DNA of 64,000 nt from positions 590 to 64,589 of the forward strand of contig DSAS01000047.1 of NCBI GenBank assembly GCA_011046365.1, written 5' to 3'. The DNA is from Fidelibacterota bacterium (GTDB lineage: Bacteria > Fidelibacterota > UBA2242). The notes under the pieces were generated by a model. That model saw only the letters and a list, made by a program, of their open reading frames with translations. It made no database searches and had not been told where the DNA came from. Made by a program: the position numbers and the translations under genes. Positions 934-52,761 of the stretch are shown piece by piece (positions within the stretch are counted from its first letter, which is position 1; every line of letters starts with the position of its first letter).

Positions 934-3753
934 TCAGTTTAAAATGTTTTTCAGATATCTGCCGGTATAGGAATTTTCACTGGCGGCGATATTTTCCGGC
1001 GTGCCGGTAGCGACGATTTCTCCGCCCTGGTCACCGCCCTCGGGTCCCAGATCAATGATGTAATCGGCGGTTTTGATCACGTCAAGGTTATGTTCGATTA
1101 CGATGATTGTGTTACCCTGGTCCACCAGCCGGTTCAGGACGGTGAGCAATATTTTGATATCTTCAAAATGCAGACCGGTGGTCGGTTCATCCAGAATGTA
1201 GAGCGTTTTCCCGGTTCCGACCTTGCTGAGTTCTGTCGCCAGTTTGACCCGCTGGGCTTCACCGCCGGAGAGGGTGGTTGCCTGCTGACCTAGCTTGATA
1301 TAGCCGAGCCCGACGCTGTGCAGGGTCTCCAACTTTTTGCGGACACGCGGAATTTTTTCGAAGAATATCAGGGCTTCATTGACCGACATGTCCAGCACAT
1401 CGGCAATACTCTTGCCGCGATATTTTATTTCCAGAGTTTCGCGGTTGTAGCGTTTGCCTTTGCAGATTTCACAAGGTACGTAAACATCGGGCAGAAAGTG
1501 CATTTCGATTTTTCGGATGCCATCACCGTGGCAGGCTTCGCAACGACCACCCCGGACATTGAAGGAGAACCGTCCGGCACGGTAGCCGCGGATTTTCGAC
1601 TCTTTCATTGAGCTGAAAAGTTCACGGATTATGCCAAATGTTCCGGTATAAGTGGCGGGATTGGAGCGGGGCGTACGACCAATGGGATTTTGGTTGATAT
1701 CAATGACCTTATCAATATATTCTATTCCGCGAATGGTTTCGTATTTCAACGGGATGTGCGCTGATTTGTAAAAATGCCGGTGCAAAATCGGGTAGAGGGT
1801 TTCGTTGATTAAGCTGCTTTTACCGGACCCGGACACACCGGTGATGCAGATGAATTTGCCGAGGGGAAAATAGACGGTAATATTTTTCAGGTTGTTGCCC
1901 TGAGCACTGCAGAGGCAGAGCTGTTTACCGTTTCCGGGGCGCCGGTTTGGTGAATAGTCAATGCGCTTTTTTCCGGAGAGATATTGCCCGGTCAGGGATT
2001 GTTCACTTTTCCGGATATCATCAGGTGTACCCTGAGCGACTACATAGCCGCCGGTTTCACCCGCGCCAGGACCCAGATCGAGAATGTAGTCGCCCTGTTC
2101 AATGGTTTCGCGATCGTGTTCCACAACCAAAACAGTATTACCGATGTCCCGGAGACGGGTAAGTGTATTCAGAAGGCGGTTGTTGTCCCGCTGATGCAGA
2201 CCGATGCTTGGTTCATCCAGGATATAAAGCACTCCGACCAATTGGGAGCCGATCTGAGTGGCGAGCCGAATGCGTTGGGCTTCCCCGCCGGAAAGGGTCT
2301 GGGCAGAGCGGTCGAGGGTCAGATATTCCACGCCCACATTGATCAGAAAATCAATCCGCTCGCGAATCTCTTTCAGAATCTGGTGAGCAATCAGTTCCTC
2401 AGTGGCGGTCAAGTCCAATTCTCCGAAAAATGTTTTTAAGCGGGAAACCGGATAGGCGGTCAGTTCGCTGATTGATAGACCGCTGATTTTTACCGCCAGA
2501 CTCTCTTTTTTCAGGCGGGCACCGTGACAGGTGTGACAGGGGCGCACGCTCATGAATTGGTTAATCCAGGTACGGATGCCGACGGAGTTGGTCTGGGTAT
2601 AGCGGCGTTTTAAATTGTTGATAACGCCCTCGAAAGGGGCATTGTATTGTCCCTGCATAAGTTGCGAATTGTAACTTACTGAAACGATGCCGCCGGAAGT
2701 GCCATATAGCAGGACATGTTTAGCCTGCTCCGGAAGTTTGTAATAGGGGGTTACAAAGTCGAAATCGTATTGCTTTGCGAGTCCTTTCAAAATGGCGGAG
2801 TACCAATTGCCCCGGGGCTGCTCCCCGAGCGGAACGATGGCTCCTTCTGACAAACTTTTACGATCGTCGGGTACCAGTAGGTCCGGATCAATTTCCATCT
2901 GCGATCCCAGACCGTCGCAGTCGGGACAGGCACCATATGGGCTGTTGAAAGAAAACATCCGCGGCGACAGCTCTTCGTAACTGATACCGCAATCGGGACA
3001 GGCGAAATGTTCACTGAAGATTTGTTCCTGTTCACCGTTAATCCAGACAATTATCAGACCGGAGCCGATATTCAGTGCCAGTTCAACGGATTCGGTAAGG
3101 CGTTCCTTGATGGTGGCGTTGACAATCAGACGATCCACCACCACCTCGATGTTGTGTTTTTTATTTTTGTCAATCCGGATGGGCTGATCAATGTCGAATA
3201 TTTTACCATCAATCCGGACCCGGACAAAGCCCTCCCGGCGAACCTCTTTGAAAATATCGCGGTACTCGCCCTTGCGTCCTCTGACCAATGGCGCCATGAT
3301 CATGATGCGGGTATCTTCCGGGAAATTCAGAAGGGCGTCCACGATCTGCTGCGGCGTCTGCTTCTGAATATGTTTACCGCAATTGTAACAGTAAGGAATG
3401 CCGATCCGGGCGTACAGCAGGCGTAGATAATCGTAAATTTCAGTTAATGTTCCCACAGTACTGCGGGGATTGTGGGAGGCTGCCTTCTGCTCGATGGAAA
3501 TAGTAGGGCTAAGACCCTCGATAAAATCTACATCCGGTTTTTCCATGACACCGAGAAATTGGCGGGCATAGGCGGAAAGCGATTCCACGTAGCGCCGCTG
3601 TCCCTCGGCGTAGATGGTGTCAAAAGCCAGTGAGGACTTTCCCGAACCAGACAAGCCGGTAATGATCACCAGTTTATCCCGGGGAATCCTGACGTCGATG
3701 TTTTTCAGATTGTGCTCGCGGGCACCTTTGATGACGAGATAACGACTATTCAT
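934..3753 (-). CDS. uvrA: Excinuclease ABC subunit A (UvrA)
   Basis: Two ABC ATPase modules with Walker [15 protein letters not shown] and [18 protein letters not shown] signatures and the CPDC/CEAC zinc modules. The likely real start is the internal [16 protein letters not shown] (cat at 3751-3753); the track ORF extends to 3831. The stop is TGA. Confidence 0.95.
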
Positions 3754-5533: not shown

Positions 5534-6145
5534 TTAATGATCTTTTAAGGGGCTCCACACTTTCCACACATTACCGACCAGATCGGGACCCGGCTTGAGC
5601 ACTTTTTTACCGGGTGTCCAGCCGGCGGGACAGACTTCCGCCCCTTTGGTGGCGCGGACATGCTGGAATGCCTGAATCTGGCGAATGGTCTCGCTGAGTT
5701 GACGACCGACGGGAGGTGTCATCACCTCCATAGCCTGAATAATACCATCCGGATCAATAATGAACCGACCCCGTAGTTCAACGCCGGCATCCTCATCGTA
5801 GACGCCGTATATTTTACCAACGTTGCCGGCTCCGTCGGATACCATGTGAAAAGGGACATCCTTTTCCGCCATTTTGGACAATTCCTGCTCGTTCCAGACT
5901 TTGTGAACGAATTGGCTGTCAACGCTAACCGAGATAACCTCAACGCCCAGTTCTTGTAATGTTTGATAATTGGCAGCGACCGCTGACACTTCGGTCGCTC
6001 AGACAAAAGTGAAGTCGCCTGGATAAAAACAGAGCATTACCCATTGACCGAGAAAATCGGATAATTTAATGCTGGTGAATTTGCCCCGGTAATAGGCGGG
6101 CGCCTGAAAATCGGGGGCTTTGCTACCGACTTTGACGGTGGACAT
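5534..6145 (-). CDS. 2-Cys peroxiredoxin (AhpC/TSA family) with selenocysteine (in-frame TGA at 5999-6001) in place of the peroxidatic cysteine
   Basis: The track ORFs 5999..6247 (N-terminal, ...FYPGDFTFV) and 5534..5989 (C-terminal, ...EVCPAGW resolving-Cys motif) are in the same frame. They are separated only by TGA, exactly where the canonical FTFV-C-PTE peroxidatic Cys sits (here FTFV-U-ATEV). A SECIS-like hairpin follows immediately. Start is taken at MSTVKVGSKAPDF (cat at 6143-6145) with a gaggag SD. Confidence 0.8.
5972..5998 (-). promoter_or_regulatory. Bacterial SECIS element directing Sec insertion at the peroxiredoxin UGA
   Basis: The minus-strand mRNA reads UGA GCGACCGAAGUGUCAGCGGUCGCUGCC. 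It can fold as a 4-bp stem (CAGC/GCUG) with a GGUC loop, a bulged U, then two G-C pairs. This is the same architecture and spacing as the E. coli fdhF minimal SECIS (UUGCAGGUCUGCACC, loop GGUC, bulged U17, G23/U24). An alternative perfect 7-bp stem GCGACCG/CGGUCGC also exists. Confidence 0.65.
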
Positions 6146-6361
6146 TTTGGGCTCCTCTCGCAAAGGGATTTCGTGTTTCGCTTCGGTGGGCGGTTCGCCA
6201 ACAGTGGCACCTGTCGGACGAGCACAGCCCACGGCTTCATCTGACATGTCTTATCTCCTCCAGTTTAATTGTCATGACCACATCCAATCTTTCAAAAGCT
6301 TGCTGCTAAACTACATTATATGAAGAGAAAACGGAATTTCCAAGTCCAAACCGACCGTGCA

Positions 6362-22971: not shown

Positions 22972-25020
22972 TTATCTCAGCAACGGTGCAATAACCAGCG
23001 AAACGATGGTCATTAATTTTATTAAAATATTCAATGAAGGACCGGCGGTATCTTTAAAAGGATCGCCTACGGTGTCGCCGGTGACGGCGGCTTTGTGGGG
23101 ATCGCTGCCCTTTCCACCCAGGTTGCCCTCCTCGATGTATTTTTTGGCATTGTCCCAGGCGCCGCCGGAATTAGCCATAAAAATAGCCATCAGGACACCC
23201 GTAACGGTCACGCCAGCCAGCAGACCACCCAGCATCTCTTTGTGAATGAATCCCAGAATCGGGGGAATCGCCACCGCCAGGGTGCCCGGAAGAATCATTT
23301 TTTTAATTGCCGCGGCGGTTGAGATATCTACACATCGGGAGTAATCGGCGCTGGCATCACCTTCCATTAAACCTTTGATTTCACGAAACTGACGGCGAAC
23401 CTCCTTGATCATCTCGTAAGCCGCTTCACCCACCGCCCGCATTAACATGCTGCTGAACAGGAATGGCAGCATGGCACCAAGCAGCAACCCGGCAATCACA
23501 AAGGGATTAGTCAGATTGATGGAATCAATTTTTGCAGAGGTCTGAAAAGCCGAGAAGAGCGCTAAAGCTGTCAGCGCCGCAGAGCCGATGGCGAATCCTT
23601 TGCCTACGGCTGCCGTTGTATTCCCCACGGCATCCAGTTTATCGGTGCGTTTACGCACATCCCGCCCCAGACGGGACATTTCGGCAATCCCGCCGGCGTT
23701 GTCGGCGACCGGACCGTAAGCATCTATAGCCAGCTGGATACCCGTTGTCGAAAGCATGCCAAGTGCAGCGATGGCGATACCGTATAATCCGGCGATACTA
23801 TAAGCGATCATAATCGCGCCGGCGATAAAAATGGTCGGGAACATGGTCGAGAGCATTCCAAGACTCAAACCGGCAATTATATTGGTCGCATGACCGGTCA
23901 TGGATTGCCGGGCAATCCACTGCGCCGGTTTTTTGGATTCCGATGTATAATATTCAGTAATCATTCCGATGGCAAAGCCGGCGACTAGACCGGTCAGGGT
24001 TGCCAGCCAGACACCAAAGGCGTTCAGAGATGTATTGCCCGCTGTTGCAGTACCGGGTAAAATTATTTTCGCAACGGGATAGATTAGTAGCAGCATGAGT
24101 CCATCGGCGACCAATGTCCCGCGGTTCAGCGCATTTTGGGGATTACCGCCCTCTTTGGTTTTGACCAGAAACGTTCCCACCAGGGAACAGAGAATTCCCA
24201 GCCCTGCCAGAGCCAGGGGTAGGATGACCAGGTTTAAACCAAAAAGCGTGCCCAGAACCATTGTGCCGATAATGGAACCGACATAACTTTCAAAGAGATC
24301 GGCGCCCATGCCGGCGACATCGCCCACGTTGTCGCCCACGTTGTCGGCGATGGTAGCGGGATTGCGGGGATCGTCATCCGGGATGCCGGCTTCGACCTTT
24401 CCCACCAGATCGGCGCCCACATCAGCGGCTTTGGTATAGATGCCGCCGCCGACACGGGCAAAAAGGGCTACGGAGCTGGCTCCAAAGCTGAAGCCGCTCA
24501 AGATCGGCAAGACGGTGTCATCAAGATTTTCAATGGTGCTGCCGTAACATTTGACGAGAATGATGAAAAGCGTCGCCAGACCGATCAATCCCAGACCGAC
24601 CACGCTCATGCCCATTACCGAACCGCTGGAAAAAGCGACTTTAAGCGCCTGGTTGAGTCCGGTTCTGGCTGCCTGCGTAGTGCGGACGTTTGCCAGGGTG
24701 GCAATCCGCATGCCGATGAAACCTGCCAGCCCGGAACAGATTGCCCCGGTGATGAAAGAAACCGCCACCAACCGGTTAGCGCCTTTGTTGGCAATCAGCA
24801 GCAGGATGGATGCCGCCAATAAAAAGATCAGGAGGACTTTACATTCTCTGTATAAAAAAGCCATTGCGCCGTCGCGAATGTGACCAGCGATAGTTTGCAT
24901 GGTTTCACTACCCCGATCCTGCCGGGAAACCCAGAGGGATTTCAGAAAGGCAAACAACAATGCAATTAAACCGACTGCGATTGTCAAATAAACCCAGTTA
25001 ATCGAAAGGTCCGGTACCAT
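22972..25020 (-). CDS. hppA: Membrane-bound proton/sodium-translocating pyrophosphatase
   Basis: 682 aa polytopic protein with [35 protein letters not shown] and GGAWDNAKK motifs. Its start ATG overlaps the pth stop (ATGA). Confidence 0.9.
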
Positions 25021-27279: not shown

Positions 27280-27311
27280 GCTTATGACTCCTTCCGGTTG
27301 TTTAAAATATG

Positions 27312-27382
27312 CTCGGGGACTTGGATTCGAACCAAGATTGACGGCTCCAAAGGCCGCAGTCCTGCCATTGGACGATCCCCGA
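27312..27382 (-). tRNA. tRNA-Gln (anticodon UUG)
   Basis: Manually folded cloverleaf: acceptor TCGGGGA/TCCCCGA, D-stem GTCC/GGAC, anticodon stem GCGGC/GCCGT with loop CTTTGGA (U33, anticodon TTG), T-arm CTTGG-TTCGAAT-CCAAG, discriminator G. No encoded CCA. Confidence 0.8.
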
Positions 27383-39399: not shown

Positions 39400-40353
39400 T
39401 TATTTCAGGGAGGCTGTTTTTAACTGGTAGATTCCGCACCAAAGGGCTGCCGCCAGCCGCAGCCGGATGATCCGGTTTGAAAATGGATAGGGTAAGAGAT
39501 GATACAGAGCGGTTAAAAAGTAGCGTGAAAAGTCAGAAATTACCAATTTTCCGATGAGTTTCTTGGCAATGCCGCGCAGCGATTTTGACGGAAAGATAAA
39601 TGAAAAGCTGTAGAGTTTGTCAAACTCCGGGTGCTTTTGAACCAAATAGGGAACGACCTCTCTGCCGAATGTCTCAACATTTTTTAAAACCTTATTAAAA
39701 GGGCGGTAATGGTGGTGGACCACTTTAATATGGGGTGCGTAGTACAGCCCTTCGGGATATTTCTGCCAGAGCCGGTAGGCGAATTCCGTGTCTTCGCCGC
39801 CGTATCTGGTGATCTGATCGTCAAAAAGACCCACCTGATCAAGAGTCTTTTTTTTAACGGAGGTACAATTAAAAAGGAAAACGGTAAAGGGAAGCGGAGA
39901 ATCGGCGGGATATTTTTTGGCTCCCCGCCGTGACCTATACAGATATTTTTGATATTTGTCATTCGGGAATTCTGGGGCAGGTAAAAGGTCGGAAACAACA
40001 CCCTGCACCATTGGATTTTGATGAAGTTTCACGTGAGATTCAATAAAATCGGTTGTTACTTCCATATCGGCATCCAGAAAAATGATAATATTGCCTTTTG
40101 AGTGGGCGATTCCGGTATTGCGGGCAGCAGCCAAACCCCGGTTTTTGTTGTGAGTGTAAATATGAACGTTGTCTGCCAGCGACAGGGATTCTAATAAATC
40201 AACGGTATTATCCGTGGAGCCATCATCAACAATGATTATTTCGAAAGCCTTTTCAGAGTAGTTTTGCACTTGAACCGAACGAATACAGGTTCTAATCGTA
40301 CCTTGAGCATTGTAAGCCGGGATAATGATGGAGATATAGGGTCTATTGTTCAT
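39400..40353 (-). CDS. Family 2 glycosyltransferase
   Basis: SIIIPAYNAQGTI...IVDDGSTDNT...FLDADME DxD motifs. Confidence 0.85.
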   Translation of the reverse strand: MNNRPYISIIIPAYNAQGTIRTCIRSVQVQNYSEKAFEIIIVDDGSTDNTVDLLESLSLADNVHIYTHNKNRGLAAARNTGIAHSKGNIIIFLDADMEVTTDFIESHVKLHQNPMVQGVVSDLLPAPEFPNDKYQKYLYRSRRGAKKYPADSPLPFTVFLFNCTSVKKKTLDQVGLFDDQITRYGGEDTEFAYRLWQKYPEGLYYAPHIKVVHHHYRPFNKVLKNVETFGREVVPYLVQKHPEFDKLYSFSFIFPSKSLRGIAKKLIGKLVISDFSRYFLTALYHLLPYPFSNRIIRLRLAAALWCGIYQLKTASLK

Positions 40354-41110
40354 TTTTGTGATATACTGCCAGGCAGGTGTTTTTTATTCTCTGGATTGGG
40401 AAACTGCCAGACAGATGATTCAGGTAATCGGTTACCGGTTCACCCGGGATGCCGAAGTAGTCGTGCCAGATTAAAAAGCCGCCCGCCTTCAGCATTTTCA
40501 GCGCATTTGCGGTATCGCTTTGAATATAGGGGGCGTTATGGTTTCCATCAACAAAGACCAAATCCACGGCATTAAAGTATGGACTAAAATCAAATTTCAG
40601 GGAATCGCCAAATAATTGGGTAATACCGCTGGTTGTATACCGGGAGATATAGTAACCGGGACGTCGCAGCGCCAGGAATTCCTTATTATCCGGATCGTGG
40701 GAATAGTCCTGAACCTTTTCAGGAGGCAGATCGAGGGTGTAAATGTGACACTGGTCCGGGAGTTGACTATTAAACATCATATGAGCTGCCGCGCAGCCGT
40801 CAAAGGTGCCGATTTCGAAGATAGATTTTATCGGGTAACATTTGACTATTGAGGAGAGGAACACTAATTCCCGGGTCGAAAGCCCTCCGGTTATCTCTTC
40901 CGTCAGCACTTTAACCGAGGTTGGATGCTGCCGGCAATCGGGAAAAACGTCCCAGAACTTTCGGACCGGCAGACCGATTTTGCGTTGGTTATAATATTCC
41001 AGGCGACAGGCACCGAGATATTTTTTTACGGAATCTATACCTGAAATCCAGAGTATTATGGTCGCTAGGTCAAAATATTTTAATCCGGATATGATCTTCC
41101 TAATTTTCAT
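40343..41110 (-). CDS. Class I SAM-dependent methyltransferase (sugar O-methyltransferase-like)
   Basis: FEIGTFDGCAA glycine-rich SAM motif and a VFVDGNH acidic-loop region. Sits within the polysaccharide cluster. Confidence 0.65.
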   Translation of the reverse strand: MKIRKIISGLKYFDLATIILWISGIDSVKKYLGACRLEYYNQRKIGLPVRKFWDVFPDCRQHPTSVKVLTEEITGGLSTRELVFLSSIVKCYPIKSIFEIGTFDGCAAAHMMFNSQLPDQCHIYTLDLPPEKVQDYSHDPDNKEFLALRRPGYYISRYTTSGITQLFGDSLKFDFSPYFNAVDLVFVDGNHNAPYIQSDTANALKMLKAGGFLIWHDYFGIPGEPVTDYLNHLSGSFPIQRIKNTCLAVYHKNEQ

Positions 41111-41141
41111 TGATTCGTTCCAAAATAACTAAGAAAAGATA

Positions 41142-41873
41142 CTAAGTTGTATGACATTTCTTTGCCACGACAACAATATTTAAATACAGGTCTTTGTTCT
41201 TCGGCAACAAGCGAGACAGTACGACACCTATGCAATTTGACGGGGAAATAAAAAATGGTATACAAAATTTTTGTAACAATTTTAATTTGGGAAACAACTT
41301 TTTATAAAAATAATTGTTCCATATTTGAAAAACAGTCTCAATGTACCCGGTAGTTTTAAATAGCTCTAAAACAATAAAACCATGTGTTTCCAAAGTATGT
41401 CTGATACCAAAACTTGTATATCTCCCGAAGTCATGTGGTTGCTCATGCTCTTCCTATACAAATGGCAATGTTAAGAGAAGGTAGCCGTCAGGTTTTAAAA
41501 TACGGTTGAGCTCCTTCACTATGTCTGCAAGATTGAAAACATGTTCAAACACTTCAATACTTAAGATACTATCAAATGAATTATTTTTAAAAGGAATAGT
41601 TATCCCATCATAATATAAATCAATTCTTTCCTTGGAATGATCATGTCCGCGTTGATATATTTCTATTCCAATAAAAATTTTGGGATTAAACAAATGTTCA
41701 TAGGAACGGTTACCACAGCCAAAATCCAAGACTTTTCCACTAAGATACCGGCTGTTTTTACGCAAACCTTTGATTAATCCTTTTTTAACAAAGTAGTATG
41801 GATTGAGAAAAATTGATAAAATACCGGGATCCAGAGCCTCTTTTTTTAATTTTTTCAAAATATTTATGCGCAT
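41142..41873 (-). pseudogene. Class I SAM-dependent methyltransferase (type 11) interrupted by an in-frame TAG (41454-41456)
   Basis: Track ORFs 41454..41873 (...LDFGCGNRSYE...LKPDGYLLLTLPFV*) and 41142..41393 are in the same frame. My translation across the gap gives PFV-TAG-EEHEQPHDFGRYTSFGIRHTLETHGFIV..., one continuous methyltransferase of about 243 aa broken by a single amber codon. Confidence 0.6.
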
Positions 41874-41885
41874 AATGTGATTAGC

Positions 41886-42941
41886 CTAATTAGTCAGAAA
41901 TGATTCAAAATTATCCACACAATCGTCCCATGAGTACAGACTTATGGTTGAAATCGCCTCCTTGACTAGTGGATGGATATTAAGAGGTTTGTCTAATAAA
42001 TTTTTTATTATTTCAATCATTTTTTTACGGTCGCCGGGATTGGTCAGTAAGCCGTTTTGGGGGTGTCTTATAAATTCCATAAGTCCCTTATTTCGATAAG
42101 CTACAATCGCACAGCCGCACGCCATAGCCTCCATGACTGGTAAGCCCCAGCCTTCCCAGTAACTGGTGTGCAGGAAGATTTTTGTTGAATTGTACAATTT
42201 TCGGAGCGTATCAATGTCCGGTCTGATATGAACATCAACCCAGGCTGGTATGCAATGGTATGGTCTGCGGGACGAAATTAGAATTGCCGTTAATTTTGGA
42301 AATTTTTTCTTTAACTCTTTTAAAATATAAAGCGTGTCTCCGGCACCTTTGATTTTTGCCGGATGATAGACGACTGCCAGATCTGTGGAACGCTCGATAT
42401 ATTCCTGCTCGAGATAGAATTCATTGGCGTTGACCGCGTTACCAAGCGGTCCGTAAGCGGTCTCATTCAGGGCTTGAAATTCGTCAATTATCCAGCCGGA
42501 TATGGCGATTTTCTTCAAAGGCAGATGGTAGGTCTTCAGCACTGCCTGTCGGTTTTTGAAATAGGTCTCGAAGCTCTGTAGGAGGTAAAATTTGCGTCCC
42601 TTTTCAGCCGCTAAATGACAAACAGGTTCGGCGGTCTGCCACCCAACGGCGATGACTGCGTCGGCGTCGGGCAGATATTTATCGCAGATTTTATTCACGG
42701 TTAGAACCACTACTTCCGGAATCGGCGTGTAGTAAAGTTCCGGACGGTTACCGGTTACCCGGTCGTAAGACCGAATCAAAGATTTTTTCAGCCTGTAGAG
42801 CAGATTCGTCTGCAAACGGAGCGGATAAATCAGAGTGACCTGATGCCCCCGTTCAGCCAGCCGGTTGGCGTATTCATGCACCACCTTGACGCCCCCCATG
42901 GGCACGGTAATAAATCCCGGTAAGACGAAAGTAATGCGCAT
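41886..42941 (-). CDS. Family 4 (GT-B) glycosyltransferase
   Basis: EGWGLPVMEAMACGCAIVA motif (GT4 E-x7-E region). Confidence 0.85.
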   Translation of the reverse strand: MRITFVLPGFITVPMGGVKVVHEYANRLAERGHQVTLIYPLRLQTNLLYRLKKSLIRSYDRVTGNRPELYYTPIPEVVVLTVNKICDKYLPDADAVIAVGWQTAEPVCHLAAEKGRKFYLLQSFETYFKNRQAVLKTYHLPLKKIAISGWIIDEFQALNETAYGPLGNAVNANEFYLEQEYIERSTDLAVVYHPAKIKGAGDTLYILKELKKKFPKLTAILISSRRPYHCIPAWVDVHIRPDIDTLRKLYNSTKIFLHTSYWEGWGLPVMEAMACGCAIVAYRNKGLMEFIRHPQNGLLTNPGDRKKMIEIIKNLLDKPLNIHPLVKEAISTISLYSWDDCVDNFESFLTN

Positions 42942-42943
42942 GG

Positions 42944-44026
42944 TTACAGATTCACTCCGATTTCATGGTAATAATCATACAGCCGCCGAACGACATTGCG
43001 GTAGTCGTGATATTTTTCAACCCAGTGCCGACCCTCCGCACCCTTTTGCATGATTAAATCTGGATTTTCAATAAAGTGGCGCAGCACCTCTTTGATGTTG
43101 TCCGGTCGGATATTGATAAACGGGTGATCGGGAATAAATTTTTCATACGTATCATTCAAATATGTGGCGCTGGCGACGCCCATGGAGAGCGCTTCCAGCG
43201 AATTCATTCCATAGCCCCAGGTCAGTTCACCAACGTGATCAATGAACAGATCAGACCGGCGTTTTATCTCGATCACTTTTTCATGGGGTTGGTTTTCGAG
43301 GAGAATGAATCGTATCCCATGACTCTTTTCCAGCTCTTTACAAGTCCGGATGATCAAATCGGAGCCTTTGATGATGCGGTTGGTGGTGGCATGGCAGATG
43401 GTCAGCGGTTTATTGAGAGACTGTTTGGTATTAAAGGCTTTAACGTCATAAGGCAGAAAGAGGTATTTAAGATTGGGGTGCATGTAGACCAGATCGAGTT
43501 CGTTGGTCAGATTCAGGTCGCTGATCTTATCCAAATCCGGAATGACGCCGCGGTTGCGCAGGTCCTGACCATGATAATGGCAGATGATTTTTTTACCCTT
43601 TGCTTTCATTTTTTGGGCAAACTCGGCATTGCGGTAAAAATCTAAACCCCATTCGAAGTGATAGATATCGAAGTTTTCCAGGTCAAAATCATGGATGGCG
43701 CGGCTGATTTTCGGTTTCCAGACCAGTTCCCGCAGCCGCCAGATGGATTTCTGCCAGGTGGGTGGATTCCAGACCGGCGGATAGCCTTCAAGGTTTGTAT
43801 GAGATTCGCGTCCCTCTGTTTGACGAACCATCCAGCGCCGCATGCCGATATACCACGGTTTGGAGGCAATCAGCGGCAGGTTCAGCAGGATGTCCTCTTC
43901 ATATCCGGCGGCGGTTTTATAGAAGGTCACGAAGCGACAATAGTGCCCGTTCAACTCGTGGGCTTTTTTCCAGTAGGAGAGAATCCCCACTGTATTTTCG
44001 GGTGATATATAGAGAATTTTCAGCAT
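42944..44026 (-). CDS. Putative GT-B fold glycosyltransferase
   Basis: 360 aa. The C-terminal half resembles a GT-B nucleotide-binding domain (ICHATTNRIIKGSDL...GYGMNSLEALSMGVASAT). The assignment is weaker than for its neighbours. Confidence 0.55.
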   Translation of the reverse strand: MLKILYISPENTVGILSYWKKAHELNGHYCRFVTFYKTAAGYEEDILLNLPLIASKPWYIGMRRWMVRQTEGRESHTNLEGYPPVWNPPTWQKSIWRLRELVWKPKISRAIHDFDLENFDIYHFEWGLDFYRNAEFAQKMKAKGKKIICHYHGQDLRNRGVIPDLDKISDLNLTNELDLVYMHPNLKYLFLPYDVKAFNTKQSLNKPLTICHATTNRIIKGSDLIIRTCKELEKSHGIRFILLENQPHEKVIEIKRRSDLFIDHVGELTWGYGMNSLEALSMGVASATYLNDTYEKFIPDHPFINIRPDNIKEVLRHFIENPDLIMQKGAEGRHWVEKYHDYRNVVRRLYDYYHEIGVNL

Positions 44027-45156
44027 TTCAGTAATGTTTCATAAATGGCGAAAAGCCGTTTTTCCATGACTGCCCAATTGTATTTTTCCCGGACAATGCG
44101 ATGACCGTTCATCCCCATCTCAACCCGCTTTTCAGGATGAGCCAAGAGATTATTTAATACCCGGGCGATATTTTCAGGAGTCACCGGATCCACGATTGCA
44201 CCGGCGCCGCTGCGCTCCACATAATACTCGATGGACGGTACCCGGCAGCCCAGCACCGGAATTCCCATCGCCATGAATTCAAAGGGTTTAATCTGCAGCG
44301 AGTGCCGGAACGATTTGTTGGGGGTCAGGGCTGAGATGCCGATGCAGGCGGGTGCTAAGAGAGCCGGAACCGACTCATAGGGAATCGGCTGGCGGAGCTC
44401 TACCACATCCTGTAACCGGTATTTCCGAATAATGTCCTTCAGTACGGCGGCATATTCCCCGGATGCCCTGCCGACGATGAGCAGTTTGGCGTCGGGAAAG
44501 CGGGACTTGACGAATTGCATTGCCTGAATCATCAATTCGATTTTCCGGGCGGGGACCAGCTGCCCGTGATACAGGATCAGCGGATTCTTTTTACGCCCGA
44601 CGTCCGTATTTTGTCCGCTCCAGAATGAGATATCCGGGTAGTTGTAGAGTTTGGCAAAGCGCTTTTTAAATGGATGAAACCAGGGTGCAATAAAAATTGT
44701 TGCGACGATATAGTCCATGAACGCCGCACAGATCAGCTCCAGCGCATGCGCCAGAAAACCGGGGATGACGGTAATCCATTTTGAGTGACGCGAGAAATCA
44801 ATAAAGTACCAGAAGATGGTTTCATGGGCGTCGTAGATGACTTTGCGTTTGTACTTGAATTTCAAAAACAGTGCAAAGGGCAGGAATTCGAATTCATGGA
44901 AATGGTATAAATCAGCCTTTTCGTTTTTTGCCAATTGATAAGCCAGATAGGGAGTTTTCAAAACGCCGGCTTTTTGAAACGATTTGTATTTCACACCGTA
45001 TTGCGGGTCCGGCGGCGGATATTCGGGCGCAATCACAGTAATGTTCGAATATTTTTTCTTCAGGGACAGAATCTCCTTGTAAAATATCCGGTCGTCGGTG
45101 GGCTGGTGCCCGAGGGTAACATGACAGATTGAGCGCTTCGGTATCATGGATTTCAT
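44020..45156 (-). CDS. Family 4 (GT-B) glycosyltransferase
   Basis: FMAMGIPVLGCRVPSIEYYVERSGAGAIVDP motif. 7-nt overlap with the downstream gene. Confidence 0.85.
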   Translation of the reverse strand: MKSMIPKRSICHVTLGHQPTDDRIFYKEILSLKKKYSNITVIAPEYPPPDPQYGVKYKSFQKAGVLKTPYLAYQLAKNEKADLYHFHEFEFLPFALFLKFKYKRKVIYDAHETIFWYFIDFSRHSKWITVIPGFLAHALELICAAFMDYIVATIFIAPWFHPFKKRFAKLYNYPDISFWSGQNTDVGRKKNPLILYHGQLVPARKIELMIQAMQFVKSRFPDAKLLIVGRASGEYAAVLKDIIRKYRLQDVVELRQPIPYESVPALLAPACIGISALTPNKSFRHSLQIKPFEFMAMGIPVLGCRVPSIEYYVERSGAGAIVDPVTPENIARVLNNLLAHPEKRVEMGMNGHRIVREKYNWAVMEKRLFAIYETLLKC

Positions 45157-46602
45157 TTAAAAAGGGAACAGCGATTTCAAGCTTTTCAGTTCGCTTTTAT
45201 TAAAAAAACCGAACATGTACAACACCAGCGGAAAGACCACAATCATACCAATTCTTAGCAGCCCGCTGATGTCCAGGAAGTACCTGGAAAAACCAACGAC
45301 AAGAGCCAGGATGAGGATCATGAAAAAGCGGAAATAATCGTAAGGAACTTTGAAAAACTTCTGGGAAATAAAGTGAGTTGCGGCTGCCTGAATGATGTAT
45401 CCGATCAGCGATGCGACAGCTGATCCCACAATGCCCCAGAGAGGGATCAAGACCAGATTGGCAGCGATATTTACGACAGCAGCGACGACGGTGATATATG
45501 CCATAAAGCGGGTTTTCTTTTCAAAATAGATACCCGGGAGGAAGATCAGATTGATACCCTGAAAAACATAGCCCAGCAGAATCCAGGGGATCATCGGCTC
45601 ACAGGCGGTATACTGCGGACCAATCAGGTAGACACCGCCGATATGGAAACGGACAATTTCCGGCATAAACAGGGTCAGGATTATCCAGAAAGTCAGGGCG
45701 ACCAGGGAAAAATATTTCAGAATTCTGGTGAAGAGAATTTTCGATTCATCGCCGGGTCCGGCTTTCAGGAAAAAGGGCTGCCAGGCATAGAAAAAAGCCG
45801 TCGAGAGGAGTAACATGAAAATCCCCAATTTATACCCGGCGCTGAAAATACCAACCGCTGCCAGACCGAGATAGGCTTCCACGATATAGCGGTTCATCAT
45901 TTCCATCGCGGCGGTTGCCAGTCCTACCGGAATAAAGGGCAACCCAAACAACAACAGTTCGGATGCCAGCGAGCCATCGAAGGTTTTCCGAATCCGAGAC
46001 AACAGAAGCAGGTAGAGGATCGCCGCGGTTGCCGCGGAAGCGATGATATTGCTCTGAAAAATGCCGATAACACCCACTTTCCGGATTGCTACCAGATAAA
46101 TGTTCAGCCCCAGGGTGATCAGGACATTGATTAAGCGGACACCCAGAAAAGTAAAAGGTTTGCTCTCCGTGCGAAGCAGTGCGAAGGGAACCCGGGCGAT
46201 ACAGTCGAAAAACAGAATCGCAGCGGCGTAGATAATAAATAGCTCTTTGTTTGAACCGGGCAATAACAGACCGGCGATGGGTCGGCGGGTCAGCCAGATC
46301 AGCAATGAGAGGACACAGCTGCTCAGCAGCGCCATCCAGGCAGCCGTGGAGAGAACGCTTTCGCGTCGGTTTTGATACTCTTCATCCTCATAGTAACGCA
46401 TAAAGGCGGAATCGAGACCGTAGTTATAGATGTGATTCAGAAAAGCCGTAAAGGCAAAGACGAGAATCGCCAGTCCGTAATCAGCCGGCGCCAGGATATT
46501 TGTATAAACCGGCAGGAGCAGGAAAGTAATAAAGCGGGTCGCTACGGTGCCGAATCCATAGACAATGGTCTGTTTGGTAAGGGAGCGGATATTTGCCGCC
46601 AT
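45157..46602 (-). CDS. Wzx-type polysaccharide/O-unit flippase (MOP superfamily)
   Basis: 481 aa, about 12-14 TM helices, with the N-terminus KQTIVYGFGTVATRFITFLLLPVYTNIL typical of Wzx/polysaccharide biosynthesis proteins. Confidence 0.85.
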   Translation of the reverse strand: MAANIRSLTKQTIVYGFGTVATRFITFLLLPVYTNILAPADYGLAILVFAFTAFLNHIYNYGLDSAFMRYYEDEEYQNRRESVLSTAAWMALLSSCVLSLLIWLTRRPIAGLLLPGSNKELFIIYAAAILFFDCIARVPFALLRTESKPFTFLGVRLINVLITLGLNIYLVAIRKVGVIGIFQSNIIASAATAAILYLLLLSRIRKTFDGSLASELLLFGLPFIPVGLATAAMEMMNRYIVEAYLGLAAVGIFSAGYKLGIFMLLLSTAFFYAWQPFFLKAGPGDESKILFTRILKYFSLVALTFWIILTLFMPEIVRFHIGGVYLIGPQYTACEPMIPWILLGYVFQGINLIFLPGIYFEKKTRFMAYITVVAAVVNIAANLVLIPLWGIVGSAVASLIGYIIQAAATHFISQKFFKVPYDYFRFFMILILALVVGFSRYFLDISGLLRIGMIVVFPLVLYMFGFFNKSELKSLKSLFPF

Positions 46603-46615
46603 TATCTTGCCCGAT

Positions 46616-47590
46616 CTATAGTCGTTTTTCCATGGCTTTACGGATCATGTTGCGGCTGCCGAAGTGCTCTTTAAAGAGGATCAGCGATTTACTGGGGGTC
46701 AACGGATTCTCGGCTAAGGGCAGTTGCGAAACACCGAAATCGAGAAAGCGGAAGCCTGCGCTGTGTGCCCAGCGCATGGTTTCCCAGATTTGCAGCGACG
46801 CCGGCTGTAATTCCGGATGACTGTCGTCTACCATATTGTAAAAAATGATCACCACCCGGTCGTTGGCGGTAAAATTCAGAGTGCCGCCGATGGGTTTGTT
46901 TTGATAATAACACATCAGCAGATTCAGCTGCCCGGGGAAAAGCTGGTCGAGTTTTTTCAATTCCTCCAGAGAATGGGTAGGCTGGACGCCATGCTTGGCT
47001 TTATTACGGACCAGAATCGGATAGTATTCATCGTAGTTTTTATTCCACTCCAGTCGCAGATCGGGATTTTCCGGCAGGTTGCGGATATAACGGCGTTTGC
47101 GTTTGTTGATACGGTTGAGTAGGTCTTCTGCGGTTCCGCTCAGTTCGATGAAGCTGGAGATATAGGTTTCGATGGTGGCGAATTGTCTCCAAAGCAGTGC
47201 ATATTCCAGCGTTTCGTCGTAATGTTTAAAGTAGAGCACCGGTGTGGGCACGAAGAAGATTCGCCGGAACTGCCGAGTTCGGCAATAGGATTCAAAAATT
47301 TCCAGAATCCGGTCGGCGTCGCCATAGCCCAAAACCCCGGTTACAAAGCCGCCGTAGCTGGCACCCGGATGAGAGTGCAGTACCTTTTCACCGTCAATGG
47401 TCCGCTCGGCAGCCGGAAAGAGTGCGATAATGCGGTTTTTCTTTTTAATGATCAATGAATGATCATTAAATGTCCGACCGATATGGTAGGTTAAAAATTT
47501 ACGATAGTGAAACAGATTGCCGTTATTCGATTCTCTGACGAAACGGTCCCACTCTTTCTGATGATCCCGGGTGTAGCGAAATATCTGCAC
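46616..47590 (-). CDS. FemAB-like / GNAT-fold acyltransferase (polysaccharide- or peptidoglycan-modifying)
   Basis: 324 aa with a duplicated GNAT-like architecture resembling FemAB-related proteins, at the upstream end of the polysaccharide gene block. Confidence 0.5.
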   Translation of the reverse strand: MQIFRYTRDHQKEWDRFVRESNNGNLFHYRKFLTYHIGRTFNDHSLIIKKKNRIIALFPAAERTIDGEKVLHSHPGASYGGFVTGVLGYGDADRILEIFESYCRTRQFRRIFFVPTPVLYFKHYDETLEYALLWRQFATIETYISSFIELSGTAEDLLNRINKRKRRYIRNLPENPDLRLEWNKNYDEYYPILVRNKAKHGVQPTHSLEELKKLDQLFPGQLNLLMCYYQNKPIGGTLNFTANDRVVIIFYNMVDDSHPELQPASLQIWETMRWAHSAGFRFLDFGVSQLPLAENPLTPSKSLILFKEHFGSRNMIRKAMEKRL

Positions 47591-51438: not shown

Positions 51439-52761
51439 TTACAGTTTTTCAAATTTTTCACGAAGTCGCCGAAATGCCTTTTGGCTTTCTTCAATAATTA
51501 TTTCCCTGTCAATCGTTAGAAAGGAGTCTTCATTGTAGATAAATTTACCATCGATCACGACCATTTTAGCGGACGTTGACGGCAGCCCGAAAAAGAGATG
51601 CTGGTGATAATTTTCCTCCGTTATTGACGAAACAGGGACATAATCGAAAACGACAATATCCGCCGCAGAACCCGGTTCAATGATGCCCGGTTTATCCGGA
51701 AAAAAGAGTTCGGCGAAACGGTTATTTCCGCGGATTAGTTTTTCGAGCCGGGTAAAGATTTCCGCTGAATCTATCCCTTTTTGAGTTAAAATAGTCAAGA
51801 GGTTCTGAAGGTTTCGGAGAATTCCACCGGGTTGTCCGGCGGTGCCAATGCCGACATTGATTTCAGGCGAGGACAGAAAAGAATAATCGCCGGAGAAAAT
51901 AGCAGTTATGACGAATGTGGCGCCGGTATTTTGGAGAATTTCAAGGCTTTGATCACCGGGAATAACCGGTCCGGCAAGCGCCGTTTTGGCGTTGAGCAGC
52001 TGCAAGGAATCCAGTCGTTTGATATCATCGTCGGAGGCAATTTCGATCTGCAATCCGGTCTCGCCATCAGCTATGCTTGCCTTAATTAGGGACAGGGCTT
52101 TATCGGAAAGTCGCCCGGTACATTGAATACCGGGTATTGTCCGCACGAACGGGTTGTCCGACAACTCTTTCTTCGCCTGCTGGTTTTCTGCCAGGGTGCG
52201 ACTGAAAATATCGTCACCGAGTCGCCCGGATATTTCGCAGCTGAGTACGGCTCGGAATCCGGCGCGGGTTACCACCGCGGCAATATTGCTCAAGGTATTT
52301 GATATCTGGAGTGGCGTAGAGTGCCAATCGAATAGTGTGGTGGTTCCCTGTTTAATAGCCTCCATGATGTCGAGGAGGGTTGCCAGCTGGATTGTATCTT
52401 CGTCCAGGCATTGGTCATATTTCCACCAGAAGTGTTCCTGTTGTTTCCGACTGAAATCGTTGGGGTGGTAAGCGGGCAAGCCTAAACCGAATGCGCGGTA
52501 AAAATGATTCCGCAGGTTGATAAAACCGGGTGTAATGAGGGACCCCTGTGTATCGTAAACCTCGATGTCCACGCTTTTGGGAATCTGGGTAAAAACCGTC
52601 TCCTCTGTACCGGCGGCTGCAATTTTGCTTTCTGACACATAGACGGCGCCGTCTGCGTAGACATTGCCTTTTCCATCATAGAGCGGTCCGCCATAGATGA
52701 CCAGCGGTTTCGGTGTCGTTTTTTTAGAAGTGACAGCTTGCTCCGGATTGACAGGTGTCAT
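51439..52761 (-). CDS. Amidohydrolase-superfamily protein (SsnA/chlorohydrolase-like), atypical metal-binding motif
   Basis: N-terminal beta-sandwich (IYGGPLYDGKGNVYADGAVYVSESKIAAAG) and TIM-barrel layout. The usual PGFxNxHxH motif is PGFINLRNHFY, so the first His is replaced by Arg. Confidence 0.55.
   Translation of the reverse strand: MTPVNPEQAVTSKKTTPKPLVIYGGPLYDGKGNVYADGAVYVSESKIAAAGTEETVFTQIPKSVDIEVYDTQGSLITPGFINLRNHFYRAFGLGLPAYHPNDFSRKQQEHFWWKYDQCLDEDTIQLATLLDIMEAIKQGTTTLFDWHSTPLQISNTLSNIAAVVTRAGFRAVLSCEISGRLGDDIFSRTLAENQQAKKELSDNPFVRTIPGIQCTGRLSDKALSLIKASIADGETGLQIEIASDDDIKRLDSLQLLNAKTALAGPVIPGDQSLEILQNTGATFVITAIFSGDYSFLSSPEINVGIGTAGQPGGILRNLQNLLTILTQKGIDSAEIFTRLEKLIRGNNRFAELFFPDKPGIIEPGSAADIVVFDYVPVSSITEENYHQHLFFGLPSTSAKMVVIDGKFIYNEDSFLTIDREIIIEESQKAFRRLREKFEKL

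Follow-up and report, generated by a model that had tools for sequence, protein, structure and literature searches.

The question raised by this locus is whether a single in-frame TGA in a peroxiredoxin (Prx) gene ends translation or is read as selenocysteine (Sec). The gene, which we name prxU, lies on the minus strand of the window, a stretch of 64,000 nucleotides (nt) from contig DSAS01000047.1 of a Fidelibacterota bacterium (assembly GCA_011046365.1). A preliminary description of this stretch had pointed to two open reading frames (ORFs) that share one frame and are parted only by the TGA at 5999-6001. The mechanical ORF list indeed places ORFs at 5999..6247 (82 aa) and 5534..5989 (151 aa) in the same frame, and the TGA between them is the sole internal stop of a frame that is otherwise intact (Table 1). 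The junction reads LCFYPGDFTFV-TGA-ATEVSAVAANY, and the peptide across the Sec site is DFTFV-U-ATEVSAVAANYQ. As had been proposed, the stop lies inside the Prx active-site motif PxxxTxxC at the peroxidatic position, but the residues that follow are ATE and not PTE. We consider it very probable that the locus is one functional gene encoding a PrxU-type, thioredoxin-dependent Sec peroxiredoxin with the typical 2-Cys (AhpC/Prx1) fold, in which U83 takes the place of the peroxidatic Cys.

A member of the PrxU family with the fold of typical 2-Cys peroxiredoxins

Protein searches were run with Cys put in place of the TGA stop. The NCBIfam equivalog model NF040737 (peroxi_PrxU) matched with 405.2 bits against a cutoff of 270, in agreement with the PrxU type suggested earlier, and the match joined residues 6-233 of 237 to profile positions 2-231 of 233. 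As it begins at residue 6, the 34 N-terminal residues that precede an internal Met belong to the family, and the start is the ATG at 6247. The runner-up NCBIfam model, AhpC TIGR03137, reached 197.8 bits and remained under its cutoff of 272. Pfam matches were obtained to AhpC-TSA (E = 5e-38) and 1-cysPrx_C. The gene is a clear member of an already known selenoprotein family, PrxU, for which a curated NCBI model exists.

The closest solved structures were the typical 2-Cys peroxiredoxins 5zte, 1we0, and 1qmv (E ~1e-46 to 1e-44). The best structure match (E = 6e-46) covered residues 40-224, and the structures align only from residue 34-40 on. Pro76 and Thr80 of the motif PxxxTxxU and Arg161 are invariant alignment columns, and Cys206 aligns with the resolving Cys (CR) of the typical 2-Cys structures. 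The expectation that the Sec residue would align with the peroxidatic Cys (CP) was confirmed both against these structures and against homologues of the Cys form. In an AlphaFold2 model the Prx core was confident (pLDDT 81, pTM 0.75). A typical 2-Cys Prx has a cysteine as its peroxidatic residue; here the codon is UGA (Sec), and the protein is a selenoprotein variant of the typical 2-Cys Prx fold.

The TGA is conserved in relatives

Genomic relatives were obtained by a scan of one genome per species, in which 592 were found and the best 80 of the 592 were kept. All 80 of these relatives, from 80 species genomes, carry TGA at the aligned codon in a frame that is otherwise open, and with the window counted, TGA is present in 81/81 loci of the Sec form. 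The best 80 stem from metagenome-assembled genomes as well as isolates, and their labels include Neomarinimicrobiota (90% identity), KSB1, Cloacimonadales, Chloroflexota, Acidobacteriota, Zixibacteria, Desulfobacterota, Thauera, Thiobacillus, and others. Protein conservation is strong on both sides of the stop. Of 87 relatives, 68 have Ala after the active-site residue and 17 have Pro.

A covarying hairpin follows the TGA

The preliminary description had proposed a hairpin resembling the Sec insertion sequence (SECIS) of Escherichia coli fdhF directly after the UGA. The hairpin itself, CAGC-GGUC-GCUG at 5985..5974 of the minus strand (nt 17-28 when the U of UGA is nt 1), proved to be real and to covary in 78 sequences, but the bulged U that had been part of the proposal is not a feature of the family. 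Covariation was analyzed in 79 orthologous segments aligned in register (the window and 78 distinct relatives). Nucleotides 17-21 were paired with 24-28 in 97.9% of cells. For the full 7-pair structure 93.6% of cells were paired, compensatory changes were present in four of the seven pairs, and none of 500 shuffles matched the observed value. Pair 18-27, which joins two synonymous third-codon positions, was GC in 44, AU in 26, CG in 5, and UA in 2 cases, with one exception; pair 15-30 was GC in 43, AU in 14, and UA in 10; and pair 21-24, made up of the first and the last loop base, was GC in 57 and AU in 21 and was never broken. The loop bases G22 and U23 were invariant (78/78 sequences), and the variable pairs of the hairpin fall mostly at third codon positions. 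An unguided RNAalifold prediction returned the same small hairpin, lengthened by pairs 15-30 and 16-29. The SECIS of the family is a continuous stem of 6-7 bp (nt 15-30) with an RGUY loop, located 17 nt after the UGA, and most members lack a bulged U.

The stem of the window consists of the pairs U14-A31, G15-C30, C17-G28, A18-U27, G19-C26, and C20-G25, with a U16.C29 mismatch. In the clade of the window, where U16 stands opposite C29, the stem can be drawn either with this mismatch or with a bulged U16 and a G15-C29 pair, and the two forms are nearly isoenergetic. The register with the bulged U16 was rejected, as the covariation of the family favors 15-30/16-29 instead. The bSECIS model (PMC13188914) describes an upper stem of 4-16 bp topped by a loop of 3-9 nt, a G at loop position one or two that is usually followed by G or U, and a distance of 16-37 nt from UGA to loop. 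In agreement with the model on these three points, the hairpin of the window has a 4-nt GGUC loop (G21 G22 U23 C24) on a perfect 4-bp stem, which extends to 6 pairs across the U.C mismatch, and 17 nt lie between A3 and G21. The bare hairpin motif is not rarer than chance in the window (18 occurrences versus 20.8 +/- 4.4 in shuffles), and its presence is therefore no evidence by itself; its significance lies in the fixed position after the UGA and in the covariation among relatives.

Folding with RNAfold, the check suggested for the proposed hairpin, preferred a different structure. Over 5950..6004 it returned an 8-bp stem that starts at the A of UGA (-13.8 kcal/mol, z = -1.78), which is also the centroid structure, compared with about -5 kcal/mol for the small hairpin. 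On energy, this stem could be taken as the recoding signal in place of the small fdhF-like hairpin, but we judge this very unlikely. Among the 78 relatives, the three variable pairs of this stem are disrupted in 22, 37, and 52, and the stem covaries no more than shuffles do. It is created by codon choice in the window and in close relatives (e.g., L001-L003, L005, and L007) and fails in L006, L008, and L010, which are also close. Its loop starts 7 nt past the UGA and has no G at either of its two leading positions, which places it outside the bSECIS model (PMC13188914), and its 5' arm would lie inside the ribosome once the UGA occupies the A site. The 8-bp stem was therefore rejected as the SECIS; it is not conserved and is a decoy. 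A lesser possibility is that it tunes Sec insertion in the clade of the window by hiding G22/U23 until the ribosome melts it.

Readings of the TGA other than selenocysteine

If the UGA were mainly a true stop, the locus would yield an N-terminal fragment of 82 residues and a C-terminal protein of 151 residues re-initiated at the GTG at 5989. A GTG does lie 9 nt after the UGA, and since Sec decoding of UGA competes with RF2, a truncated product is expected under selenium limitation. However, neither fragment holds a complete Prx fold or active site, and the GTG, which lacks a Shine-Dalgarno sequence, is situated within the conserved hairpin. Genuinely split homologues, a possibility raised at the outset, were not seen among the relatives: no homologue is arranged as two genes, the 80 nearest orthologues all carry the TGA, and homologues of the Cys form, among which are the genomic loci L082-L086, are single polypeptides. 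We regard separate translation of the two parts as highly improbable. The standard mark of a genuine selenoprotein is the occurrence of Sec and Cys homologues in pairs. Of the five Cys-form genes, four no longer have an intact hairpin. In the fifth, L085 (TGC at the site), a perfect CGGC-GGUC-GCCG hairpin is retained at 1256..1300; this suggests a "fossil" SECIS, likely left by a recent change from Sec to Cys.

A pseudogene, or an error of sequencing or assembly by which a Cys codon TGC or TGT was mutated to or misread as TGA, would require one base change. The source annotation (JGI 3300022547, contig Ga0212126_1000067; L081 2934..3647) has two separate ORFs at this locus, with 82 and 151 aa. 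A decayed relative also exists: in L087 (857..1566) the site is occupied by Ser (TCA), part of the hairpin is kept, and the N-terminal extension is out of frame, a picture that resembles decay or an error of assembly. Against this stand the identical TGA in the 80 nearest orthologues, which come from independent assemblies and phyla, the strong protein conservation on either side of a TGA in an otherwise intact frame, and the covarying hairpin at a fixed distance downstream. With these observations, decay or error at the window locus is extremely unlikely.

Among the 120 best database proteins (P0001-P0120), the residue at the Sec column is W in 93, Cys in 21, G in one, and Ser in one. The W and G entries are TGA codons mistranslated under genetic code 4 or 25, as checked on the DNA of P0008, which has TGA. 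There is next to no chance that these entries reflect a genome-wide reassignment of TGA to Trp (code 4) or Gly (code 25), as TGA terminates 9 of the 47 window genes, uvrA among them, in-frame TGA occurs once in 18,748 window codons compared with 234 TGG, the table-11 ORFs of the window are long and continuous, catalysis would be lost with Trp or Gly as the peroxidatic residue, and the W translations come mostly from contigs of ~1 kb, for which metagenomic gene callers pick the code contig by contig. The earlier statement that TGA is an ordinary stop elsewhere in the window is thus correct, and because 9 of 47 genes stop at TGA, the recoding of UGA is local and context specific, not genome-wide. 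No further credible selenoprotein gene came up when the full window was scanned for other pairs of ORFs that share a frame and are parted by TGA.

Observations that weigh against selenocysteine insertion, and the selenium machinery

Several results count against Sec insertion at this codon. The hairpin of the window is the weakest of the 79, with -5.4 kcal/mol compared with a median of -9.0, and it does not reach the bSECIS energy of <= -7.5 kcal/mol, which 56 of the 79 reach and which is a threshold of the prediction program bSECISearch and not a biological definition (PMC13188914). The 8-bp stem, at -13.8 versus -5.4 kcal/mol, excludes the small hairpin and sequesters G22/U23. A search of Rfam at E <= 10 over 5850..6100 gave no match, because there is no curated family for so small an element. 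The machinery for Sec insertion was also missing from the sequence at hand: ARAGORN found no tRNA-Sec in the window (only a tRNA-Gln), an NCBIfam scan of the 20 window ORFs with the size of SelA, SelB, or SelD (SecD, pyrophosphatase, PurA, QueA, RuvB, glycosyltransferases, and others) found no selA, selB, or selD, and a further 10 kb of the source contig contained neither sel genes nor tRNA-Sec, a search that covered in total ~74 kb of a multi-megabase genome and size-matched ORFs only.

Three relatives carry a tRNA-Sec ~3.5 kb downstream of prxU: L035 (5013..9408; Thauera sp. WH-2), L013 (513..4814; a gammaproteobacterial metagenome-assembled genome [MAG]), and L041 (1983..6371; a Thauera MAG). 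The ORFs between prxU and tRNA-Sec were scanned in L035 and L013 and matched selA with 591 and 597 bits and selB with 423 and 473 bits, respectively. The family is thereby linked directly to the Sec machinery, and such a compact prxU-selA-selB-tRNA-Sec cluster could be mobile as one unit. The genes selA, selB, and selD have been reported in most clades of KSB1, a lineage among the nearest to the window gene (PMC9012183). We infer that selABCD are present in the genome of the window organism, which prxU marks as a selenium user in which these genes are expected.

A 440-aa amidohydrolase encoded at 51439..52761 (minus strand) is most like SsnA, "putative selenium metabolism protein" (TIGR03314), with 196.8 bits compared with a cutoff of 455. 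This score is far under the cutoff, and the gene is therefore no evidence of a selenium trait.

Candidate resolving residues

The resolving Cys in the motif EVCPAGW had been described as kept, and Cys206 is present in the window protein and aligned with the resolving-Cys motif of BAS1. At this C-terminal position 25 of 87 relatives have Cys and 56 have Thr; about two thirds of the family have thus lost the residue. Two other cysteines are widely conserved. The N-terminal extension, 34-39 residues long in the family, carries a GCxRP-like Cys motif in 81 of the 87 relatives (Cys8 in the window protein), and Cys73, ten residues before Sec, is conserved in 86 of the 87. The extension matches no solved structure. 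Docking of Cys8 near Sec83 was sought in the AlphaFold2 model, which was uninformative on this point, as the extension is disordered in it (residues 1-35 at pLDDT < 50). One might suppose that Cys8 is the real resolving residue of the family, forming an Se-S bond with Sec83, that PrxU is a distinct "N-terminal-resolving" class, and that the C-terminal Cys, still present in the clade of the window, is a relic; we consider this idea doubtful. The Sec-containing Prx of Eubacterium acidaminophilum reportedly has 203 residues and no N-terminal extension.

Proposed decoding and catalysis

From the bacterial mechanism of Sec insertion, the following course of events may be proposed. When the ribosome reaches the UGA, about the first dozen downstream nucleotides would be in the mRNA channel, and entry into the channel would melt the strong, non-conserved competitor stem, whose 5' arm comprises nt 3-10. 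Nucleotides 14-31 would thereby be freed, and the small SECIS hairpin could form just outside the channel entrance. By analogy with known systems, the winged-helix domain at the C terminus of SelB carrying GTP and Sec-tRNA(Sec) would bind the extruded G22/U23, and SelB, competing with RF2, would place Sec-tRNA(Sec) in the A site, leading to incorporation of selenium. In the protein, Prx chemistry predicts that the selenolate of U83, activated and positioned by Pro76, Thr80, and Arg161, attacks the peroxide and is converted to selenenic acid. A thiol, likely that of Cys206 of the partner subunit, with Cys8 as an alternative, would resolve the selenenic acid to a selenenylsulfide, which thioredoxin would reduce to recycle the enzyme.

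Relation to known systems

The existence of Sec-containing Prx rests on experiment (Sohling et al. 2001, cited through PMC13188914, PMC1088965, and PMC1794560). Such a protein was purified from E. acidaminophilum in 2001 (cited in PMC13188914), and by 2006 such proteins were recorded in many anaerobes (PMC1794560). The view that Sec-containing Prx is known but uncommon was right in its first part only, as the family is common in uncultured bacteria. The window gene shares with PrxU of E. acidaminophilum, NF040737, and the "Prx (TxxU)" family of Zhang and Gladyshev the AhpC/TSA fold, the motif PxxxTxxU, a UGA with an in-frame SECIS, and the occurrence of Sec/Cys pairs. The Clostridia-type PrxU member P0008 has the same hairpin in the form CAGC-AGUU-GCUG. 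The window gene differs in its host, an uncultured Neomarinimicrobiota/KSB1-like bacterium, in keeping the C-terminal resolving Cys, unlike about two thirds of the relatives, and in having the weakest SECIS sampled.

The minimal SECIS of E. coli fdhF is a 17-nt upper hairpin (nt 15-31) with a bulged U17 and G23/U24 in the loop (PMC8659212); the fdhF sequence was verified in 5419 of 5426 E. coli genomes. Both elements are hairpins within the coding sequence with a GGUC tetraloop, and the form of the window hairpin with a U16 bulge and G15-C29 would mimic U17. The similar spacing claimed earlier holds insofar as a G/U loop occurs near the same spot, but the hairpin of the window is 1 nt nearer to the UGA (loop nt 21-24 versus 22-25 from the U of UGA; G22/U23 versus G23/U24). 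It also lacks the long lower stem. The stem of most PrxU members is continuous and free of a bulged U, the window having the U.C mismatch, and the loop ends of PrxU covary (G..C or A..U), which leaves only GU unpaired.

With typical 2-Cys peroxiredoxins (AhpC/Prx1; 5zte, 1we0, and 1qmv) the window protein has in common the catalytic Pro, Thr, and Arg and the C-terminal EVCPAGW. It differs from them by Sec in place of Cys, by an N-terminal extension with a conserved Cys (34-39 residues in the family), and by Ala in place of the usual Pro after the active site. The Prx-like thiol:disulfide oxidoreductase selenoproteins (UxxC) and Prx-SUH (NF045827) likewise have a thioredoxin fold and AhpC/TSA Pfam matches, but their motifs are UxxC or CxxU, whereas that of the window protein is TxxU (PMC1088965, PMC13188914). 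The window protein belongs to neither family; its score on the Prx-SUH model was 20.9 bits compared with a cutoff of 298.

The current understanding of selenoprotein biology is unchanged by this gene. For annotation, the name prxU restores a full-length antioxidant enzyme that the source record splits, and ~80% of the nearest catalogue relatives list an erroneous Trp or Gly as the catalytic residue, a systematic artefact of the family. A SECIS defined by covariation in the family could make automated searches better, since folding by energy alone selects the wrong hairpin in this sequence.

Other features of the window

The coordinates of prxU and its associated elements are collected in Table 1. 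The match to the sigma-70 consensus upstream of the gene hints at a possible separate promoter for prxU.

Table 1. Positions of prxU and of elements within and upstream of it
Feature	Position	Strand	Remarks
prxU coding sequence	6247..5534	minus	237 codons; ATG 6247..6245, TAA 5536..5534; one UGA read through
UGA selenocysteine codon, residue 83	5999..6001	minus	Peroxidatic position; aligned to the Cys residue in Cys-form homologues and in solved structures of 2-Cys Prx
SECIS hairpin	5971..5988	minus	nt 14-31 from U of UGA; loop G21 G22 U23 C24 at 5981..5978
Competing 8-bp hairpin, AGCGACCG/CGGUCGCU	5975..5999	minus	Fold of lowest free energy; does not belong to the conserved element
Cys206 in EVCPAGW, canonical resolving position	5630..5632	minus	Aligned with EVCPAGW of PDB 5zte (Arabidopsis 2-Cys Prx BAS1)
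N-terminal extension, residues 1-34	6146..6247	minus	Cys8 in GCARP (codon 6226..6224); inside the PrxU model match
Shine-Dalgarno-like GGAGGAG	6255..6261	minus	7 nt upstream of ATG; read from the sequence, putative function
Sigma-70-like promoter match TTGGAA-17-TATAAT	6315..6343	minus	10/12 consensus; in the 114-nt esterase-prxU gap

Three further observations were made elsewhere in the window, all on the minus strand. The region 39400..47590 contains glycosyltransferase genes (EpsD-, EpsE-, and GT4-like) and genes for a FemAB-family PEP-CTERM-associated protein and an HfsF-like protein, and looks like an exopolysaccharide biosynthesis cluster. A membrane-bound pyrophosphatase is encoded at 22972..25020; its top NCBIfam matches are sodium-translocating types, with 1050 bits on the best model (cutoff 1059) and 972 bits on NF001960 (cutoff 546). 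The only tRNA gene of the window, at 27311..27382, encodes the tRNA-Gln mentioned above, with anticodon UUG.

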